The position numbers and the translations under genes were made by a program. Positions 20,960 to 35,569 of a stretch of DNA of 64,000 nucleotides are shown here, piece by piece; position 1 is the stretch's first letter, and each line of letters opens with the position of its first letter. Location of the stretch: assembly GCA_963833125.1 (NCBI GenBank), contig CAWHWX010000016.1, positions 384,001-448,000 on the forward strand. Reading direction: 5' to 3'. The DNA is from Candidatus Bathyarchaeota archaeon. Lineage in GTDB: Archaea > Thermoproteota > Bathyarchaeia > 40CM-2-53-6. The notes under the pieces were generated by a model. The model saw only the letters and a program-made list of their open reading frames with translations, searched no databases and was not told the DNA's origin.

Positions 20960-22184
20960 TTACTTTCGTTGGGACCGCTTTTTGCTCGTGGTTGCCAGTG
21001 CAGCCTCTAATTGTTCACGCATTGTGGAGGCGGGTATGTTCTGTAGGCCGAGTAGGGTTGTTTTGCCGCGGACGCCTTCCCCTGATTTTGAAGCCGCTAT
21101 GACGCCTATGGCGCTTAAGCCGCGGGCGTATTTCCAGATTTGCGTGTGTTTTCTGGGTTTATCGTTGTATTCCTCGCAGACGGCTTTGTATTCGCGTTCA
21201 ACGGTTCCGATGTTGGCGTAGGCTTCCTGCGACTCCTCAAGGGTCCTTGCTAAGGCTAGTAGCATGTATTTTTCGTGGGAAGATAGTGCGGCAATGTATT
21301 CGCCGCGCAGCATGGGGTAAACGCTTCCCGCCGCTTTGCGGACATGTTCGGTGAGAACTCGCTTTGAAGGTTCTGAATCCGCATACTTTCCTGCTCGCCA
21401 GATAAGTTCTATGGCGTATCGAGCATCACCACTCTGCCCTCCTACGTCAGCGACAAGTTCTAGGGCTTCGTCGGCTACCGCGTTTTCTTTGAAAGCTAAG
21501 CTGACGCGGGCTTGGAGTATATCGATTAGTTGACGGGAATTGTACTTGTCAAGTTTGACGATGTTCCTTTGCAGGGTATCGACAGTGCTTCTATCCAGTT
21601 TTTGTAGGTATTCGAGTTCGCGGAGTATGAAGATGAGTGATAGGCGGATTGGTTTTCCAACCCGTTCCTCTTGGATGCGGGTCAGGTTGTAGATTGGGGT
21701 TGACTCCTCCACCCTGATCAAGTGTTCAACTTCATCTAGAGCCAGTATGAGGTGCATGTTCTTGTCGTCAAGCATGTCCATTAGAGTGTGGAGAAGTTCT
21801 TCGGGTGCGAAGCCGCGTTTTGGAAATTCAGGTTCGAACTGCGTCAGAACCCGTTTGATGATCATGAAGAGGCTGCCTTTCGCTTCGCGGCAGTTGACGT
21901 GAACATAATGGAGATTGACCTTTCGCCCCCTCGCAGCCTTGACTAGGTCTGTGCCGAAGCGTTGGACCAAAACCGTCTTCCCAGTTCCCACATCGCCCGT
22001 GATCAGAACTCGTTGGCTTGTGGAGAACGGGCTGTCAAGGGAAAAACGGAAGAGTTGCGTTAGAAAACGCATCTGATCGTCGCGGGTGAGGAAGGTTGCG
22101 GGGTAGGAACTCCAACGAAAGAGGGGTTTCGTCCTTGAAAACTGTCGGTCTCTCTAACGTCTCTTTAACGATGTCGGAAGACAA
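20960..22184 (-). CDS. cdc6: Orc1/Cdc6 replication initiator; frameshift near 22085
   Basis: N-terminus VFKDETPLSLEFLPRNLPH read upstream of the called ORF; GDVGTGKT, ALDEVE, GDARYAIEL, C-terminal wHTH. Confidence 0.93.
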
Positions 22185-22384
22185 TTGAACGAGAGCCCCT
22201 ACTCTGGGCATGGTTTACAATACTCCCATTTTACGGTGTTTGTTGTCTAAGACGATAAAAATAGGAGAGCAGGGTGAAACTGATTGACGGGCTACGTTAA
22301 ACTTCTTAGTCTTAGGCGCAAGACTAAGTAAATTCTGCCTTCAGATGACGGTTTTTTCAGCACACCGAAACTAGGTAGGTGCTG

Positions 22385-22430
22385 AGAACTTGACGTTACC
22401 ACTAAGAAAGGCAACGGGGCGTTGTCGGTT
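22385..22430. repeat. Right-end / 9 bp / left-end junction 1
   Basis: agaacttgacgttacc-actaagaaa-ggcaacggggcgttgtcggtt. Confidence 0.65.
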
Positions 22431-22510
22431 TTGGATTGCTCAAGAGGTAGCTGACACCAAATTCACCGCTGACCTACGGCCATTTGTTGACATTGATTCA
22501 GAATGCAATC
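22426..22510 (+). pseudogene. IS6-like transposase remnant, internally deleted
   Basis: RFWIAQEVADTKFTADLRPF joined to LTLIQNA. Confidence 0.75.
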
Positions 22511-22556
22511 GCTAAATACAAAGAATCAAAGCAGTGAAGTTAGAGGCAATCCAGAT

Positions 22557-22772
22557 TTGAAAGGCTTGACAAGCAAGCAGCATCTATTCATGCGGGTAAT
22601 ACTTGTAGTCAGCCTTGCAAATGCGGCAATTTACTACAATCTCTTCTTGAATCCCCAAGTTGTAACTGTACCATGGCAATTCGCCGAATTTGCCGTATTG
22701 GCAACTGCCGTTACCCTCTTCGCTCTTACAGTAAATCTACTCTTTTGGTGGAAGTACCAACGAAGTACCTAG
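22557..22772 (+). CDS. Small two-TM membrane protein (cargo), paralog of 24909-25166
   Basis: MKGLTSKQHLFMRV...WWKYQ vs MKGLTSKEHLFVRV...WWKYQ. Confidence 0.65.
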   Translation: MKGLTSKQHLFMRVILVVSLANAAIYYNLFLNPQVVTVPWQFAEFAVLATAVTLFALTVNLLFWWKYQRST

Positions 22773-22991
22773 ACAAGATCACACCGCAGGTATCTGACAT
22801 ATGGAGAGCCGACGAACTATTCCTAAAAAGTAAGGGCAAACATGAAAGTACCTGTACGCACTCATGGACGATCAGACAAGATCTGGATAGGCCCAAATAA
22901 ATGTAACGTTATCTTCACTCATGCCTAGAAAGCAGGGATAGAAGTTAAGGGCAAAGACAGGTGGTTGACTCTGATTCAGAACGCTTCAAGA
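22763..22991 (+). pseudogene. IS6-like transposase remnants (first DDE aspartate region and 3' tail)
   Basis: KYLDKITPQVSDIWRADELFLK...MKYLYALMDDQTR; then degenerate end gtaacgttatc (22903-22913); then KAGIEVKGKDRWLTLIQNAS. Confidence 0.8.
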
Positions 22992-23117
22992 AACCCACGA
23001 CTCGCTGATCGTTCGCAACTGCGACATCGGTCTGGCACGCAAAGGTGTTCTCGGCTTTCGACGCATTACGTTAAATAGTCTTAACTTCATGGCGACGTGT
23101 AGTGGCTTGGGGAGCTT

Positions 23118-23618
23118 ATGGTTCAAAGATTCAGGTTCATTGCCGTTTCGATCCTTTCGATTCTGGTGCTCACGATTATCGGAGCCAGCTTAGTCTCACC
23201 GGCATACGCTCAAACGATTACGCTTAATGTTTCGCCTAACCCTGTATTGTCCTCAACAACATATTTCTCTCTTACATACTCTGGTACGCTCGCCCAGCGT
23301 CTGCTGATCTAATACATATACTCCTGTATTCAGGTTCTGGGTGTTCGGTGTTTGCAAACAGCTTTGTTGTCGTAACCGCTAACGGTATCACGGGCGCCTT
23401 CAGTAGGAGCGTTATCCCCAATAATGATCCGGGGGTCGTATAGCGCCCAGGCGGTGGACATTACAAATCCAGGTGTCCCCGCATCAGGTTGCGTGAACTT
23501 CACAATCGACCCCGCCTCTTCCATACCTGAATACCCAGTCGGCTTAGCGATACTAGCAATCTTCATGATAATCGCATACGGCGTAATCAGAAGAAAAACG
23601 GCGACGAAACAAAAGTAA
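23118..23618 (+). CDS. Small secreted Ig-like surface protein with IPEYP-TM-basic anchor (cargo); two frameshifts
   Basis: Signal peptide ...PAYAQ, ITLNVSPNPV, IPEYPVGLAILAIFMIIAYGVIRRK. Confidence 0.65.
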
Positions 23619-23644
23619 GAACCAATCAACGGCATGTTGCCGAC

Positions 23645-23756
23645 TTTTCAACCATCAACCGAACGGTAACAGTCTTAAGAATTTCATTCATCAACCGACA
23701 ACGTAACGTTACCACGAAAAAGGTAAGTGGCTGACCATAACTCAAAATGCGAGCCG
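23645..23756. repeat. Right end with subterminal repeats / 8 bp / truncated left end fused to transposase tail (junction 2)
   Basis: catcaaccgaac (23653), catcaaccgacaacgtaacgttacc (23689-23713), spacer acgaaaaa, ggtaagtggctgaccataactcaaaatgcg = KWLTITQNA. Confidence 0.7.
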
Positions 23757-23840
23757 TCGAATTTAATATCCGACGAAAAGCTAGTATGGTTTCGGGTTGT
23801 GGGGTCAGCGTAAGGTTGGAGCAGAAACGTAATCGTTGTC

Positions 23841-24290
23841 GTGCTACTTGCCGTCGTTGTTGCCTGCGTGATTCTGCCATCAGCGAGAGCAACTGTACCT
23901 ATCACCGTGACCATTACCCCGCCAAGTCCATCCGCAAATGCGTCTTTCACAATCTCTGGGCAGTTCGTGGGGTATGGAAGTGGAGTACACTGGATAATGG
24001 ATTTCGGCACAGCTCAGAGTCTGAATCCTTGCGTTCCCCTAAGTTACGGACCTTCGTTTAGTGGAACGACAGGTAGCGGTGGCACATACTCCCAGAGCAT
24101 TTCAGGCCGATCCCCAGGACCTTACACAGTAACCGTAAGAGACGAGTTTGGTGACAACTCTGGTCGCGTCTGTTTCACAATCGGTTTTGGCTCTACATTT
24201 AACATCCCTGAATACCCACTAGGATTACCGATACTCGCAATCCTCACCGTAATCGCATACGGCCTAATCAGACGCAGACCCCGAAACTAA
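23841..24290 (+). CDS. Small secreted Ig-like surface protein with IPEYP-TM-basic anchor (cargo)
   Basis: Signal peptide, ITVTITPPSP, GPYTVTVRD, IPEYPLGLPILAILTVIAYGLIRRRPRN. Confidence 0.7.
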   Translation: MLLAVVVACVILPSARATVPITVTITPPSPSANASFTISGQFVGYGSGVHWIMDFGTAQSLNPCVPLSYGPSFSGTTGSGGTYSQSISGRSPGPYTVTVRDEFGDNSGRVCFTIGFGSTFNIPEYPLGLPILAILTVIAYGLIRRRPRN

Positions 24291-24339
24291 CTGCTTTTTT
24301 GAGTCAAGTCCTGCCAGTTAACAGAACCTTGCATTGTTA

Positions 24340-24566
24340 GGTAAGCTCAAGTTGTATAATTCTGGTTAGTCGGTTGCGTCTGGTTAAGCAGTTGCAATTT
24401 TCTGACAAATGGAACGAAGTATGGTTAGGCTAACCATGCGAACCCGATTCCTACGCCTACATGTAAAACCCAGCGAAGCTCTCGCATTATTTGTGGCTGC
24501 TTTTCTCACCTTAACATCAACCCGATTTTCAAAGCATATTCTATCAACCGACAACTTCACGTTTCC
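24340..24566. mobile_element. Possible MITE-like empty unit of the same element family
   Basis: Left ggtaagctcaagttgt vs reverse complement of right end ggaaacgtgaagttgt (12/16); no clear ORF; internal palindrome atggttag-g-ctaaccat. Confidence 0.45.
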
Positions 24567-24586
24567 TGCGAAAGGGTAACGCGGCC
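24513..24586. repeat. Right-end / 8 bp / left-end junction 3
   Basis: atcaaccgacaacttcacgtttcc-tgcgaaag-ggtaacgcggcc. Confidence 0.7.
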
Positions 24587-24898
24587 AATTTCCATGAGGC
24601 TTACTTGCAAGAGTTTTGGACGCAGAACAAGGACACTAGAACCGAACATATTCGCCACATTCGGTTAGCAGGAGATCGCAACAACAACCGCATGGAACGC
24701 TTCAACGGAGAAGTAAGTCAACGGCAGAAGGTAGTGCGAACCTTGAAGCGGCCCGATACCCCGATACTATCAGGTTATCGCATTTACCATAACTACGTTT
24801 GATCACACGAAGCCCTAAGTGGAAAGACTCCCACAGAAGCCGCGGAATCCAAATCAGAGGAAAAGACGGATGGATGACACTAATTCAGAACGCAAGAA
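24585..24898 (+). pseudogene. IS6-like transposase 3' remnant
   Basis: NFHEAY...RTEHIRHIRLAGDRNNNRMERFNGE...YHNYV*SHEALSGKTP...WMTLIQNA, with stop and frameshift. Confidence 0.85.
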
Positions 24899-24908
24899 GT
24901 AACTCCGT

Positions 24909-25166
24909 CTAGTTCGAGTCCTCTATCTTCCGAGGAAAAAGCCAAAATCGCTGATTATCAGTTCTTAGCTGATACTTCCACCAGTACAGCAGGACTACCG
25001 TGAGAACGAAAAGCGTAGTGACGGTTATCCAAGCGGCGGCTTCAAAGATATTAGAGGTGAATGTTTGTAGGTTGCGTGAGATAGCGTAGAAGACAGCGGC
25101 ATTCAGAACAATGGTTACAGACAATACCCTCACGAACAGGTGTTCTTTGCTCGTTAATCCTTTCAT
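24909..25166 (-). CDS. Small two-TM membrane protein (cargo)
   Basis: Two hydrophobic helices; paralog of 22557-22772. Confidence 0.65.
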   Translation of the reverse strand: MKGLTSKEHLFVRVLSVTIVLNAAVFYAISRNLQTFTSNIFEAAAWITVTTLFVLTVVLLYWWKYQLRTDNQRFWLFPRKIEDSN

Positions 25167-25169
25167 CTT

Positions 25170-25361
25170 TCAAGCCCTCCTCCGCACGACAAAATAGGCT
25201 AAGGCCCCCGTCACCCAAGAGATCAACAAACCGACTCCTACGCCGCGGAAATAGGCGTTCCCTAAAATGTATCCGAGCGGAACAAAAATCATGCTCAAGA
25301 CAAACTCAAGCACTACGAGCTTGGCGCATGTAGAGCGCCATTTGTCTTTAGTTTCTGTCAT
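25170..25361 (-). CDS. Small two-TM membrane protein (cargo)
   Basis: Hydrophobic 63-aa ORF ending RRRA; tightly packed with neighbours. Confidence 0.6.
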   Translation of the reverse strand: MTETKDKWRSTCAKLVVLEFVLSMIFVPLGYILGNAYFRGVGVGLLISWVTGALAYFVVRRRA

Positions 25362-25388
25362 CGCATTTCACGCTTGTCATCAAACGCT

Positions 25389-25640
25389 CTAGGTCTTTGG
25401 GATGTGGCCTGAACTGCGACCCACAAGAAACATGCCGCCGCCAACGAATATTACGCCGAAAAGCACTAGACCGCTGGCAACTAGAAGCCCAAGGTTAAAA
25501 CAGTTAGGGCCCCACCAAGGCGAGCCGCATAGAAAAGTGCTCAGGCCTAAGACAAAAAGCACCCATCCAACAAGAAACACAAAACCCCCCAATACCCCCC
25601 ACGTATTGTAACGGCCGCGCATTTTCACTTCTGTCATCAC
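25389..25640 (-). CDS. Small two-TM membrane protein (cargo)
   Basis: Two TM helices with CGSPWWGPNC loop; shares a 19-bp start region with the previous gene. Confidence 0.6.
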   Translation of the reverse strand: MMTEVKMRGRYNTWGVLGGFVFLVGWVLFVLGLSTFLCGSPWWGPNCFNLGLLVASGLVLFGVIFVGGGMFLVGRSSGHIPKT

Positions 25641-25775
25641 ATTTCACCCACCATCAATGTGCCGCGTCTCGCTCTTACTGGTTCCCCTGTTTTTCACGAA
25701 TCGAAACATGGTTCCGTGTGCAAACGGCTAGAAACAGTAAGATCGAATCCCACCAAACGAAAGTAAACACCTCCC

Positions 25776-25836
25776 ACCATCACCGAACAGTAACATCGGA
25801 ACCTTACGTGGATTTCACCTAGGAGGTAACGTTACC
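25776..25836. repeat. Terminal right end of the array
   Basis: accatcaccgaacagtaaca ... ggtaacgttacc, same ~60-bp spacing as 23651-23713. Confidence 0.65.
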
Positions 25837-25859: not shown

Positions 25860-26883
25860 TCATCCAGCTCGATAGGATTCAATCACTCTGTAAAGCTCAT
25901 CGCGTTCAGATGGCGCAACCTCCCTAACCGCCCCTCCGACCCCTACTAACTTTCTACCCCGGCTCCTCGGAGTCACGGTCCCAATGATTCTCGCTGGAAT
26001 GCCGCGCTGCCTCAGACTGCGTAGGATTCCACTGCTTTTGCGCCTATCCGCCACTATTAGGAGACAACCTGAACTCATCAGACGCAACGGATCCACCCGG
26101 AGAGCGGAGCATATCTCCTTCGTTTCCTGGCGAATCGCAATGCGTGATTCATGAATCACAAAACCCAACCTGGGACGCTTCTGCGAGCTCCCAGACACCC
26201 TGCAACAAGCCTCCCTCGGTGGGGTCATGCATTGCCCTAACTCCACCAGCCCGCACCGCTATCAACGCGTCGTCCACTACGCTGATCTTGTTCCTCAAAC
26301 CCTTAGCCCGTCTCAGAGATCGAGGCCCGATTTTCCGGCGAAGTTTATGGGCAAAGTCAGTGGCGAAAACCGCGGTACCTTCGATCCCGATGGTTTTCGT
26401 CATAATGATCTGGTCTTGTGGGCGTGCGGTGTGTGATGTGACGTAATTCTTTCTCGAGACTACACCAACCATATACCCGATCACGATCGGGCGCCTCAAG
26501 CCAGGCGTAACCTCTGTGTGGCCTCCCACGACGGAGACGCCAATTCCTTTCGCCGCTTTGTCGATTTGTTTCATGATCGTATCGACGAGGGCTATGGTCG
26601 ATCTCTCAGGAAGTAGCAGGTCGCATAGGAACCACTTGGGTTTCGCTCCCCTACAAGCTACGTCGTTGGCGTTCACGTGAACGGCGAGCCATCCAATATC
26701 AAAAGCCGTGCCTGTAACTGGGTCGGTCGTCAAAACCAAAACGTCTTTTCCGAGCGATACTAACGCCGCATCCTCTCCAACCGACGAACCAAGAATCACC
26801 GACCGATCCTTCGCTCCCTTGTAGCGAAACACGCTGCGAACTAGGACTTCAGTTGGGATTTTCCCAGTCCGAAAGAACGTCAT
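25860..26883 (-). CDS. AIR synthase-related (PurM/HypE-like) protein; frameshift near 26155
   Basis: GEDAA, TTDPVTG, NANDVA, GGHTEVT, MHDPTEGG, DPLRLMSSGCLL. Confidence 0.88.
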
Positions 26884-28444: not shown

Positions 28445-30947
28445 CTAGGCTTCGGGGCTCACTCTTCGGTAGAAGAAGTGCTTCAACGCCTCAGCTAATG
28501 CGAGATAGGTGATTATGAATACTGCCAAGACCAAGTAGAAAGTGAGTGGGGGAATCACGAGGCTGAGTAATCCGCCTATTGGGGTGAATGGTAGCAGCAT
28601 CGGAACGATCACGGTGGCCAGAGTGCTAAAGATCAATGCTTTGCTTGGACGGCTTTTGTAAAATGGGACGTGCCTTGTTCTTATGACGAAAATAATGAGC
28701 GACTGGGTACTTATCGATTCGAGGAACCACGCTGTTTGGAAAAGTGCTGGTGGGGCATGGAATACAAATAGCATGACCCCGAAGGTCAGGTAGTCGAATA
28801 TCGAGCTCACAGGTCCGAAGAACGCCATGAATTGCCGCACGAAATGCATGTCCCATCGACGCGGTGCCTTCAGATATTCAGCGTCGACATTGTCTGTTGG
28901 AATAGCTAATTCAGAAATATCGTAAAGTAGGTTGTTAAGCAGAATCTGCGAGGGTAGCATCGGGAGGAATGGTAGGAACAGGCTCGCGCCGGCTGCGCTG
29001 AACATGTTACCGAAGTTAGAACTCGTGCCCATCATGATGTACTTCATCGAGTTTCCCATCGTCTTCCTCCCTGCCTGAACTCCCTGGGCTAGGACGGTCA
29101 GATCATTTTGCAGGAGGATGATGTCCGCTGCAGCCTTAGCAACATCTACAGCGTTATCGACTGATATGCCCACGTCGGCGGTTCTTATGCTGGGGGCGTC
29201 GTTTATCCCGTCTCCCATGAAACCAACCACGTGTCCGTTCTTGTGGAGAGCTATCATGATGCGGTTCTTCTGGTCGGGTGTGATGCGAGCAAAAATGTTC
29301 GTCGTCTCGACGATTCTTTGGAGCGCGGAATCGCTAGTCTGCCTAAGGTCGTCCCCGGTCACTATGGCGTCGACTTTGATGTTGAGCGTCTCGCAGAGGT
29401 GTCTTGCCACGAACTCGTTGTCGCCCGTCAGGATCTTCAGGGTTATTCCCGATTCTTTCAACATTTGCAGTGAGGCTGTTGCCGTTGGCTTGGGTGGGTC
29501 GGTGAAAGTCAGCAGGCCGACAAAGACCATATCCGTTTCGTCTTTGACCGTGTAGGATGGAGTCTTTTCGACTTGTTTAGTCGCTACGGCGAGTATGCGT
29601 CTTCCTTGCTTACTCATTTCTTCGTATTGGGTGCGTATTTTGTTCTTGATGTCGTCGGTCAACGGAAGTTGTTGGCTCTCGTTTTGGTATAGGCTGCATG
29701 TGCTTAGCATTTCCAGGGTGGCGCCCTTGGAGATCAAGAGTGTCTTGCTTCCGTCGCTTACAATTACGGAGACTCTTCGTCGGACAAAGTCAAACGGTAT
29801 TTCATCAACCCGCGCGTATTTTGTTAGGTCCAATTGTTGGTGCTTGAGTATTGCGTCGTCTAAGGGTGTGCGCACTCCGGCCTCAAGACTGCTGTTGAGC
29901 TGTGCCATCAGCAGAATGTTAGTCGTCTTCTTTGCCGTTGACGTTGAGGTGTGAGGTTAAGTCTATGGCGTTTTGGGTTAGCGTACCAGTTTTGTCTGTG
30001 CAGAGGGTGTCCATGCTTCCGAAGTTTTGTATGGCCGATAGTTTCTTGACTATCACGCCTTTCGCGGCCATCTCCATGGCTCCCTTGGAGAGGTTTATCG
30101 TAACGATCATCGGAAGAAGTTCAGGCGTAAGGCCAACGGCCAGGGCCACGGAGAAGAGTAAGGATGTTAGAATGTCGCGTTTGAACAAAGCGTTGATGAA
30201 GAAAACGAAGACTACGAGGAGAAGGGTAACTTGCATGATGAGGTAGCCGAACTTTTTGAGTCCTCTATCAAACTCGGTCTCAGGTTCTTTGCCAATCAGT
30301 TCCTTCGCGATTCCCCCGTAGGCGGTTGTGCTGCCTGTTTTGGTTATCATCATCGTTGCGGTTCCGCTGACAACTGACGTGCCCATGAACGCCAAGTCGG
30401 TACGGTCGAGGTCTTGCTTCGTTTTGTTATCTGGAGCCGCGTCTTTTTCAGCCGGGAATGATTCTCCAGTCAGCGCAGATTGATCAACGAACAGATCCTT
30501 GACTGACAGAACTGTGCCGTCGGCTGGGACCATGTCGCCAGCTGACAAATACACCAAGTCGCCTGGAACAATATCGGAAACTGGAAGCTCGACCTTTTTT
30601 CCGTCCCTGTTCACTGTGGCAGTTGTGAGGATTCTTGCCCTCAGGGCGGCCGCAGCGTTCTCAGCCTTAGACTCCTGATAGAAACCGAGGACTACGCTCA
30701 TACCGACGACGAAGTAGATTATTGAGGCGTTGACAAGGTCTCCGAGAAAAGCAGAGATGCTGCCCGCGAACACAAGTATGATGACTAGGGGGCTCTTGAA
30801 GTAAGACAGAAACATCGAAACTCGGGATCGTTTCTTACTACCGACTACAACGTTAGGGCCGTACGTCTTCAGACACTTCTCTGCTTCCTCCTGAGTCAGT
30901 CCACTAATAGTGGCGACAGCGACTTCGCTCATTGCTAACGGAACCAC
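28445..30947 (-). CDS. mgtA: Mg2+-importing P-type ATPase; frameshift near 29915
   Basis: TGES, PELLP, DKTGTLT, GDGINDAP, SSNFGN, QILLNNLLYD. Confidence 0.9.
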
Positions 30948-31980: not shown

Positions 31981-32118
31981 TCATCAGACATTCCGAATTG
32001 GCCGGCCTTCGGCATCCAGACACAAACGGAGAACCCACAACTAGAATAATAAAACAGGAATTAGCCCAAGCTCTGCATAGAACAAAATAACCGCAGTCCC
32101 GAACACGAACGACGAGCG

Positions 32119-32499
32119 ATTGCCGACAAACAACCTAAGACGCTAATTACTGACGGCGCACCAAACTTCCATGAAGCCTACGAGAAAGAGTTCTACACAA
32201 ACCGACTAGAAACAAGAACGGAACACATTCGCGATATTCGTATGGATGGAACGGTTCACCACAACAAAATGGAAAGAATGAATGGGGAAATTCGTGACCG
32301 AGAACGCGTCATGCGCACTCTCGAAAAATCAAACAGCCCAATAGTTGCGGGCTATCAACTATTTCACAACTATATTCGCCCACATATGTACTTAGAAGGA
32401 AAGACCCCCGCAGAAGCGGCAGGAATCAAAGTTGAGGGAGAGAACAAGTGGTTGACTTTGATTCAGAACGCAACCCGTAAAGGTAGAGATACCAAATAG
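32119..32499 (+). pseudogene. IS6-like transposase, 5'-truncated
   Basis: PKTLITDGAPNFHEAY (2nd D), NKMERMNGEIRDRE (E), HNYIRPH, GKTPAEAAGI, KWLTLIQNA. Confidence 0.88.
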
Positions 32500-34352: not shown

Positions 34353-34625
34353 GTGACCTCGCTGCCAAGAACGAAACGAATCAAACAGGTTCGGAGAACA
34401 TTAGATTACTTGGCTTACGCCTCTCTCTTCTTCGATATCTGCATCGCAATAATTACCTCTATGAGCATCATTGGGTTTGGCGATAACCGCATGCTGTTTC
34501 TGGTTCCAATCAACTACCTCCTTACAGGCGTAGTTATCCTTTCTCTAGTTTCCTTTGCTACATTGCTGATTCTGAAACATGAAGAAACAATCCTCGTAAA
34601 GTTACTCCGCATCAAGAAATCTTGA
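34353..34625 (+). CDS. Small two-TM membrane protein
   Basis: Hydrophobic 90-aa ORF directly after clc. Confidence 0.55.
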   Translation: MTSLPRTKRIKQVRRTLDYLAYASLFFDICIAIITSMSIIGFGDNRMLFLVPINYLLTGVVILSLVSFATLLILKHEETILVKLLRIKKS

Positions 34626-34654
34626 GCAAGAATCTAAACCCGTATCTGGCGGAG

Positions 34655-34746
34655 ACTGGCGTTACCACGGGAGAACTCCCGCTGAAGCAACTGGAATACG
34701 CGTTGAATGTAAGAATAAGTGGCTAACTATCGTGCAAAATTCTTCG
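34655..34746 (+). pseudogene. Element right end plus IS6-like transposase tail
   Basis: ggcgttacc-acg followed by GRTPAEATGIRVECKNKWLTIVQN. Confidence 0.75.
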
Positions 34747-34792
34747 TGCGAGTATTCTTAAGTTACTGAGGCAGATTTCGCTGCGATAAGCC

Positions 34793-35250: not shown

Positions 35251-35569
35251 ACGCCCTTGGAGCTTAGCGATAAAGCAGACGAAAAGCAACAGCCCTCTGC
35301 GGCTGACGAGAAGGTAATGTTACCCTTGATTGGTTTCTCTCTAATCGCCTGTAACATTAAATCCTTCATCTACCCCGCGCGACTCGCATTCGTGTCAGTT
35401 GAAGAGTACGAGAAACAGGTTTTGGGGGTTGTGACGAAATTGGGAAGCTTCTGGGTATAAATTGGGCATAACCGGAAATATTCAGCCTGGAGCGCTTGAG
35501 TCAATTCTCTTACCTCTAATCGATAGATATCATTCGTGAGAACTACAACCGACAGGAGAGTGACAGCTG

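Follow-up and report, generated by a model that had tools for sequence, protein, structure and literature searches.

Background

Members of the IS6/IS26 family of insertion sequences (IS) are short, with lengths of 700-890 bp, and ISDsp3 is the one carrier of a passenger gene named in a family review; archaeal IS6 clades are placed there in the Halobacteria, Thermococcales, Methanococcales and Sulfolobales (PMC7986276). Harmer and Hall leave the archaeal and the long bacterial members outside a strict IS6/IS26 family, and the bacterial IS26-group consensus is GGTTCTGTTGCAAA (PMC6807381). Units of IS26 insert preferentially beside another IS26 (PMC4196232); that insertion is conservative, one IS copy being shared and no duplication made (PMC7986276). 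Tandem reuse of a single target is described for casposons and for elements borne by tyrosine recombinases or integrases, in an article that gave no "IS6" in a whole-word search (PMC6563490). Here we analyze a region beside the orc1/cdc6 gene of a Candidatus Bathyarchaeota archaeon, at 22289-25836 of a 64,000-nucleotide stretch of its genome (assembly GCA_963833125.1, contig CAWHWX010000016.1, positions 384,001 to 448,000; hereafter the window). Judged from its sequence, this region is probably a decayed tandem array of non-autonomous, cargo-carrying IS6-like transposons that grew by insertion adjacent to element ends.

The transposases of IS30, IS911 and IS231 also favour targets that resemble or adjoin inverted repeats; to our knowledge they have not been described as building long arrays of different cargo at the spacing of the target duplication. 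No description of arrays like the present one was found in the full-text literature, supplements aside, and a survey published in 2026, which covers the IS of 17,237 archaeal genomes, has in its main text none of the terms "Bathyarchae", "passenger", "tandem" and "SWIM" (PMC13343696).

The array beside cdc6

In relatives of the archaeon, cdc6 and an AIR-synthase-related gene are direct neighbours. Their tblastn matches lie ~230-390 bp apart in 10 of 13 loci of the same genus, and seven of the sites were read directly. The conserved left flank at the empty site of the relatives ends ...GGGTGAAACTGATTGAC, which corresponds to position 22288, so that 22289-25836 of the window is inserted DNA. The same site is occupied in G019 (~2.7 kb), G016 (~1.6 kb) and G006 (~2 kb), with a different content in each (G000 denotes the genome that holds the window and the other G numbers those of relatives). 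The content of the cdc6 site is accordingly variable, as a preliminary description of the window, made from its letters, would have it. The leftmost remnant of the window, E0, is common to G019 and G016 at this site and therefore represents an old insertion that came first, with lineage-specific content added beside it.

The inserted DNA holds four to five degenerate elements, all in one orientation, each with a transposase remnant that keeps the last codons, its own cargo and a right end of ~60 bp. They are arranged as follows:

22289-22400, plus strand: E0, gene-less remnant of 112 bp; left end degenerate (GGGCTACGTT), right end good and of the "GTCACCT-box" subfamily
22401-22409, no strand: spacer 1, ACTAAGAAA, 9 bp
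22410-22510, plus strand: E1a, left-end remnant (22410-22430) fused to transposase fragments, ~aa 238-258 and the last 8 codons
22503-22772, plus strand: cargo 1, predicted membrane protein of 89 aa
22763-22990, plus strand: E1b, transposase fragments, ~aa 200-243 and the last ~17 codons, without left end
23118-23618, plus strand: cargo 2, frameshifted gene of a secreted protein (open reading frames, ORFs, 23118-23312 and 23424-23618)
23650-23713, plus strand: bipartite right end of E1, in which the CGGTTGAT box occurs twice
23714-23721, no strand: spacer 2, ACGAAAAA, 8 bp
23722-23753, plus strand: E2, GGTAAG as sole residue of the left end, then the last 9 transposase codons
23841-24290, plus strand: cargo 3, secreted protein of 149 aa with a C-terminus of IPEYP type; 80% DNA match in G012
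24515-24566, plus strand: right end of E2
24567-24574, no strand: spacer 3, TGCGAAAG, 8 bp
24575-24898, plus strand: E3, GGTAAC and after it ~108 C-terminal transposase codons, a pseudogene interrupted by an in-frame stop and a frameshift
24909-25640, minus strand: cargo 4, three small predicted membrane proteins of 85, 63 and 83 aa
25773-25836, plus strand: right end of E3, of a different subfamily, with the terminal palindrome GGTAACGTTACC

Two truncated elements make up cassette 1. To the first belong a left end, cargo 1 and two fragments of the transposase; to the second, cargo 2, a right end and likewise two fragments of the transposase. The fragment in E1a showed 83% tblastn identity to transposase residues 238-260, and DNA matches of E1b to many intact transposase genes begin at 22762. 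The E2 and E3 cassettes are relics and not mobilisable units, because only 5-7 nt of their left ends are left.

The ORFs differ from one cassette of the window to the next, in agreement with the preliminary description, and no significant family was found for the cargo proteins in Pfam or NCBIfam. DNA copies of cargo 1 with 76-92% identity occur in 9 other genomes and at G000 C16:179634, where the copy adjoins another transposase remnant. The 85-aa protein of cargo 4 is related to cargo 1, and a block paralogous to cargo 4 lies at G000 C16:134943-135751, adjoining the hsp20 site considered below. Cargo 2 ends in IPEYP, a hydrophobic helix and a basic tail, and this tail recurs in cargo 3. Secreted proteins are often found directly downstream of transposase remnants (G000 C4:221619-222515, C19:159485-160150 and C30:42791-43597; window 23424-23618 and 23841-24290). 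Their C-termini consist of I-P-E-Y-P, a hydrophobic helix and an Arg-rich tail, an arrangement that resembles a sorting signal; the two copies in the window had no match in Pfam or NCBIfam. Further along the window the transposon family forms a second cluster, with a 144-aa transposase remnant (32065-32496, PF13610 E 5.3e-5), a C-terminal remnant at 34615-34752 and an element end at 35324.

Ends and junctions in the window

An end of this family comprises ~60 bp: first the common terminus GGTAACGT, then a box that is specific to the subfamily and occurs twice, either CGGTTGAT, CGTTTGGT, CGTCTGCT or GTCACCT. We located ends with an nhmmer profile, whose 13 seed ends included three window ends but not the one at 24566; it was used in place of a clustering of all GGTAACGT-like words in G000 that proved far too permissive. 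One 25-nt consensus had been proposed to recur at five places in the array. Four of these are real ends, but they fall in at least three subfamilies and not under a single consensus. When up to 3 mismatches were allowed, the consensus was present at 2 of the 5 places, 23689-23713 (0 mismatches) and 24542-24566 (2 mismatches), with no matches expected from 100 shuffles; the ends at 22400 and 25836 have only the terminal ACGTTACC in common with it. Profile E values were 1.8e-7 at 22400, 1.9e-11 at 23713, 1.3e-5 at 25836 and only 0.8 at 24566 (profile positions 4-27), scores that are partly circular since 3 of the 4 window ends were seeds. By eye, the end at 24566 matches those at C4:221329 and L022:10125; ends nearly identical to it occur in G000 C4, G021 and G016. 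The composite end of E3 type was also found in G019:C1, followed by 8 bp and another end. The fifth place, 22913, is unconfirmed as an end because the profile scan missed it and it lies inside a transposase remnant.

The spacers of 9, 8 and 8 bp, each followed by GG(T/C)AA, were read after three window ends just as first described. Concerning the inverse end said to abut there, it is recognisable at junction 1, but at junctions 2 and 3 it amounts to only 5-7 nt. At junction 1, positions 22410-22430 show a complementarity of 81% to 23693-23713 (21 nt) and of 82% to 24546-24567 (22 nt); this left end carries an exact box and differs at 4-5 of ~21 positions. What remains at junctions 2 and 3 is GGTAAG and GGTAAC(G), placed exactly 8 bp past the end. 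Ten intact transposase genes are homologous to the DNA at junction 3 from 24581 onward, directly after GGTAAC, and since the intact genes read GATGGT at this breakpoint, the hexamer lies outside the gene. The last transposase codons were found at all four places where they had been reported to be kept (22484, 22962, 23728 and 24871), and a fifth copy of this tail motif lies at 32449, against a chance expectation of 0.01.

Other origins of the junctions were considered. Junction 1 could have been diverged transposase coding sequence (the Lys-Gly-Asn region); this was rejected, as the match upstream of GAAAGG is at random level, the left side fits an end subfamily and the right side has the exact box GTTGTCGGTT at the right distance. 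For junction 3 an adjacent deletion of IS26 type was rejected too: it predicts an end that abuts transposase DNA with neither a spacer nor GGTAA, and the 14 nt after the end are unlike the gene at that point; internal GGTAAC-like pseudo-ends were found to be unsupported there, given the GATGGT of the intact genes. An IS26-like adjacent deletion by the right end of the upstream element may apply to junction 2.

The transposon family

On its profile matches the transposase is IS6-like, with a DDE domain of the IS240/IS6 type. The intact 393-aa protein of G017 matched PF13610 over profile positions 2-137 of 139 (E 5.6e-14, 52.9 bits, cut-off 27), and its best NCBIfam model by far was that of the IS6 family transposases, NF033587 (E 4.7e-32, positions 1-200 of 202). 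It also showed a SWIM zinc finger (E 1.4e-6) and, below the cut-off, a zinc-binding stretch of IS1/IS1595 type (E 3e-4). In the family as a whole the transposase has ~390 aa and combines the SWIM zinc finger, a second zinc ribbon, a helix-turn-helix (HTH) and the DDE domain.

Intact elements of relatives measure 2.6-5 kb, start with GGTAACGT or GGTTCTGT and are flanked by 8-bp target duplications. They carry passenger genes before and/or after the transposase gene, among them genes for aspartyl-protease-like, V4R-domain and membrane proteins. Two 100% identical copies of 2748 bp in G011, which start with GGTAACGT and end with ACGTTACC, have the 8-bp repeats ATCCCGAG and TTACGTAA; intact elements elsewhere have thus the same termini as were read in the window at the outset. 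In G017 two copies of ~2.65 kb stand in inverted order, and Nitrosopumilus has two copies of ~2.83 kb whose inverted ends, 51 bp long, start with GGTTCTGT; the repeat AAATTAAC flanks one of these copies. Among 21 candidate elements bounded by outward-facing ends, the flanking 8-mers were identical in 14 and reverse complements of each other in 2, with one offset by a base; the two with reverse complements are L021 (G019:C18) and L023 (G004:C13). Reverse-complement 8-mers are what an intramolecular inversion by replicative transposition, or recombination of copies in inverted order, should leave behind, and together with the identical copies in direct and inverted order they would be compatible with movement through cointegrates only (copy-in). 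Solo insertions are flanked by unrelated 8-mers.

Non-autonomous forms, with both ends and no transposase, are represented by a 1325-bp element of G017 that carries a gene for an M24 peptidase and by miniature inverted-repeat transposable elements (MITEs) of G000. In this they are like mobile insertion cassettes (MIC), transporter IS (tIS) and MITEs at large, from which the present family differs in being stacked in arrays at a fixed spacing. The MITEs of G000 are 185-187 bp long (C1:384210-384396, C12:151914-152098, C18:75109-75294, C18:132321-132506, C19:174398-174583 and C4:149330-149516) and have GGTAACGT termini, with perfect 8-bp duplications in 4 of the 6 copies. Further single ends of MITE type occur elsewhere in this genome.

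The transposase gene was present in 17 of 22 other genomes of the genus, with many open frames of 370-494 aa; a further 18 genomes, which represent other genera of the order, gave no match at E 1e-10. Relatives with 43-63% identity were found in Nitrosopumilus, Nitrosotalea and TA-21 Thaumarchaeota, and one with 69% in a metagenome-assembled genome (MAG) of an unclassified member of the Thermoproteota. The element family was found in one genus of Bathyarchaeia, whose MAGs come, by their record titles, from peat and soil, and has relatives in Nitrososphaeria. G000 itself has one full-length transposase gene, with a +1 frameshift, in a 3067-bp element (C4:218254-221320) that has TTACGTAA on both sides. 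As this sole full-length copy is frameshifted, the array of the window genome is probably frozen. Another 20 copies in G000 are partial remnants; 18 of them extend to the C-terminus, and the N-terminal stretch of 189 residues is missing from all 20.

In the broad sense these are IS6/IS26 elements, with a DDE transposase of IS240/IS6 type, an 8-bp duplication and termini that start with GG and have G at position 7, although the score against NF033587 stays below the cut-off of that model; the terminus GGTTCTGT equals the first 8 bases of the consensus GGTTCTGTTGCAAA (PMC6807381). They fall outside the strict sense of Harmer and Hall, which takes in elements of ~0.8 kb with a ~14-bp terminal inverted repeat (TIR) and a transposase of H-HTH and DDE domains only. 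Instead, the transposase here has ~390 aa with SWIM and zinc ribbon, the elements have 2.6-5 kb against 700-890 bp, the ends are bipartite and ~60 bp long against ~14 bp, and passenger genes are the rule.

Elements stacked at a spacing of 8 bp

The profile was run over all of G000 and ~35 loci of relatives, and ends that reach the terminus were kept. This census gave 84 ends with 23 facing pairs of neighbours; in 14 of these pairs the ends are less than 200 bp from each other, and the distance is then exactly 8 bp without exception, although the loci of the relatives were picked through transposase genes or junction patterns, so that the share of stacked ends is not an unbiased genome-wide rate. 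The enrichment of end-8bp-end junctions supposed in the preliminary description was borne out by this spacing. A separate scan of 23 genomes for GTTACC-N(2-14)-GGTAAC, with sites on both strands, gave 75 matches listed and 126 further rows. Among the 75 matches listed, N8 was counted 19 times, N9 9 times and N3, a different operator-like palindrome, 24 times, with 1-5 matches for each of the other lengths.

Arrays in relatives comprise five elements in a row in G017, with TTACGTAA as spacers, three elements in G016 and four in G019:C18, where TGTAAGAA or its complement stands between them. Their units lie in either orientation. One 8-mer is reused within an array, and arrays at other places reuse unrelated ones (TGTAAGAA, CAATTGAG, CAACTGAG and CTGTTGAG). 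At 9 of the 14 junctions the end boxes, read by eye, differ across the junction, so the neighbours are different elements and not dimers or circle junctions. A state like that of the window was found at G011:C3, where 8 bp separate an end from ~18 nt of a left end, beyond which lies a gene with heavy deletions but with its tail intact. Elements stacked beside the end of a neighbour, as insertion of the kind first proposed for the window would leave them, are seen in relatives, and none of the results that the preliminary description named as refuting its idea was obtained, so that its core is supported; at the window site, where the three spacers differ, stepwise insertion is inferred from them.

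These arrays resemble those of casposons and integrases in that the same target is reused and the duplicated target separates the neighbours. They differ in having an IS6-like DDE transposase and not Cas1 or an integrase, in the much smaller size of the elements, and in forming also at arbitrary 8-mers beside a resident end. They differ too from IS26 arrays, in which neighbours share one IS: here neighbours keep their own ends with a regenerated 8-bp repeat between them.

The hsp20 site

The array had been described as lying next to cdc6, which it does, but cdc6 is not the main target of the family; its main hot spot is the site upstream of the hsp20 promoter. The motif "N8 + CAATATTTATAT...GTTACTAAAGGTAAC" precedes the Hsp20 gene of G000 (PF00011, E 1.1e-12), and at 13 further sites the downstream ORF starts, by reading, with similar codons. 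The motif gave 18 matches, of which 16 are true sites, in 14 of 23 genomes, and 2 are unrelated matches with three mismatches. At all 16 true sites an element end stands directly before the 8-mer. In the three genomes in which both the site and an adjoining array were read, the spacers are the 8-mer of that genome, TGGCGTAA in G021, TGTCGTAA in G004 and TGACGTAA in G019:C57, and the TTACGTAA arrays of G000, G011, G013, G016 and G017 likewise match their own 8-mer. Since the spacers equal each genome's own 8-mer, the position is reused whatever the word. The hsp20-site arrays of eight genomes had only transposase-gene similarity in common, and no promoter-proximal order of entry could be inferred from them.

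Several promoters that look host-like contain 15-bp palindromes, GTTACC-N3-GGTAAC or GTTAC-N5-GTAAC, beside TATA-like boxes (G000 C12:19687, C17:24686 and C4:220085, and the hsp20 promoters). Their half-sites equal the transposon terminus, and the operator of a host regulator may be linked with the recognition of transposon ends or the choice of target.

Proposed growth of the arrays and alternative explanations

In the mechanism that we favour, each insertion duplicates 8 bp, as seen in the elements above, and new copies would prefer the 8 bp just outside a resident end, which would mark the target, probably through the shared terminus bound by the transposase. With the same 8-mer now to the left and right of the new element, the target exists once more, and further elements can join the array. 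The window array would have grown in this way beside E0. Both the replicative mode of transposition and the recognition of the end are what we infer from sequence comparison; recognition of a resident end is favoured over that of a word because the position is reused and the 8-mers of solo insertions are unrelated. Decay would then consist of deletions that start 5-22 nt inside the left end and extend into the transposase gene, and the last transposase codons, the cargo and the right end are spared. The preliminary description had the transposase lost after insertion: the loss is seen as a state, but that state does not establish the order of events. One conceivable cause of the deletions, offered with low confidence, is an unstable end-8bp-end palindrome that is resolved by losing one arm; the retained parts might also be due to selection for the cargo or to a promoter in the 3' end of the transposase gene. 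The complete proposal, in which a DDE transposase reads an integrated end as a target 8 bp away and stacks cargo arrays at hsp20 and cdc6, while palindromes set off deletions on one side by which the transposase is removed and the cargo becomes fixed, is a tentative one, plausible and open to considerable doubt.

Several observations weigh against the array reading or against its IS6-like assignment. The score of the transposase against NF033587, 111.3 bits, is below the curated cut-off of 125. The window spacers ACTAAGAAA, ACGAAAAA and TGCGAAAG are not identical, one has 9 bp and none matches the outer flanks, so that reuse of one 8-mer at the window would require later mutation; the differences fit an old age, and the ends are decayed as well. 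The left ends at junctions 2 and 3 come to 5-7 nt, weak when taken alone, the GGTAAG of junction 2 can be read as Gly-Lys codons, and the profile scan detected none of the three left-end remnants of the window. The manner in which the loci of the relatives were picked has to be added to these points. Finally, no empty hsp20 site was found among the sites examined in the 23 genomes, and a word- or promoter-specific target is therefore not cleanly separable there from recognition of an end.

This last point bears on the alternative that we take most seriously, though we judge it unlikely: that the target is a DNA word like TTACGTAA, or a host promoter or operator with GTTAC/GTAAC palindromes, and that arrays grow by duplication of the preferred word. 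Most spacers at the hsp20 site are indeed TTACGTAA or one or two changes away from it, the word resembles the element terminus, the hsp20 promoter has GTTACTAAAGGTAAC 18 bp away, and with every site occupied a first insertion without a resident end is out of view. Yet other arrays reuse the unrelated TGTAAGAA, CAATTGAG, CAACTGAG and CTGTTGAG, the spacer follows each genome's own variant of the 8-mer, and solo insertions have no common word (GTCCTGAA, GCTGTTAT, GTTAAACA, CTTTTCCG and ATCCCGAG). An ordinary IS graveyard, that is, unrelated decayed insertions accumulated without targeting in a tolerant intergenic region, is improbable. It would account for the degenerate state of all window elements, for their differing spacers and for the many transposase remnants of G000 that have no end beside them, but not for the 8-bp spacing of 14 out of 14 close facing pairs, for GG(T/C)AA 8-9 bp after three window ends, for the uniform orientation, or for the identical architecture of arrays with intact elements in relatives.

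Even less probable is targeted conservative incorporation of translocatable units as in IS26, or else homologous recombination or tandem duplication between copies. The preference of IS26 units for insertion beside IS26 (PMC4196232) and the membership of the transposase in the same wider family speak for it, and the reverse-complement 8-mers at 2 of the 21 bounded elements fit intramolecular replicative events or recombination between inverted copies. In IS26 arrays, however, a single IS copy is shared and there is no duplication at the joint (PMC7986276), whereas here no element shares its two ends with a neighbour and each has an 8-bp repeat, which was found at 14 of 14 junctions; the end boxes differ at 9 of those 14, and the cassettes are not duplicates of each other. 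Least credible of all is a true integron-like system, in which end-8bp-end would be the core site of a tyrosine or serine recombinase that captures cassettes. In spite of the resemblance of ACGTTACC-N8-GGTAACGT to such a core site, identical copies lie at unrelated sites between 8-bp direct repeats of target DNA, every intact element has a DDE transposase, and no recombinase-like ORF was noticed at 19-30 kb of the window, a region scanned in part with Pfam and without a dedicated integrase search. The integron likeness first proposed for the array holds as a functional analogy: there is an open-ended row of small, mostly promoter-less cargo units at one chromosomal place, with content that differs between close relatives. 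The process differs, being DDE transposition with target duplication instead of site-specific recombination. In place of IntI, attI and attC there are units bounded by transposon ends with target duplications; the cassettes are transposons with their own inverted ends, lie in either orientation in relatives, and have no evident common promoter.

Flanking genes and assembly support

The array is bordered by two genes:

20960-22211, minus strand: orc1/cdc6, main ORF 20960-22072, with ~45 N-terminal codons in another frame (22035-22211)
25860-26883, minus strand: AIR-synthase-related gene, two overlapping ORFs (Pfam AIRS, E 5.4e-22, and AIRS_C)

The cdc6 product matched Cdc6_lid (E 8.9e-22) and Cdc6_C (E 5.2e-17) in Pfam, and its open frame has 397 aa in the window against 417-422 aa in relatives. 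One base is missing at 22084 in the contigs of all four other sequencing runs compared, and the window base there may be an extra one, by assembly error or as a real frameshift. The two ORFs of the AIR-synthase-related gene share an overlap of ~100 bases. In 7 of 13 loci of relatives the halves of this gene gave only abutting tblastn matches, which suggests a frameshift in the window; overlapping or split matches were also seen in G016, G019, G018, G021, G007 and G017. Beyond it, at 28445-30947, two ORFs that adjoin each other on the minus strand, 29919-30947 and 28445-29908, seem to be the parts of a split P-type ATPase-like gene.

Contigs from four other metagenome runs, with 90-99% identity and so from relatives, cover parts of the region. 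A 3.5-kb contig from another sample crosses junction 2 (23521-24053), so this junction is not an assembly artefact of the window MAG; none of the other-run contigs spans the whole array. The sequencing runs contain at most 0.20 of the sampled words, and gaps or skips in the other runs, such as that from 22322 to 22927, say nothing firm on the presence or absence of a cassette.

Significance

Among IS6-like elements, the routine presence of passenger genes, the long ends with two boxes that are specific to the subfamily and the self-renewing arrays spaced by 8 bp are unusual features. Little is known about how uncultured archaea of soil and peat, such as the Bathyarchaeia, gain and shuffle genes. 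The cargo consists mostly of small membrane proteins and of secreted proteins with a common anchor-like tail at the C-terminus, which hints that surface variation is what the cargo trades. The window array itself is a relic, and its interest lies in the rule that it reveals at the level of the family. If a resident end is indeed the target signal, this would be a new route to gene-cassette arrays, and the way in which a DDE transposase chooses its target would follow a rule that is simple and can be tested, comparable with the landing of IS26 beside IS26 that shapes the resistance regions of bacteria.

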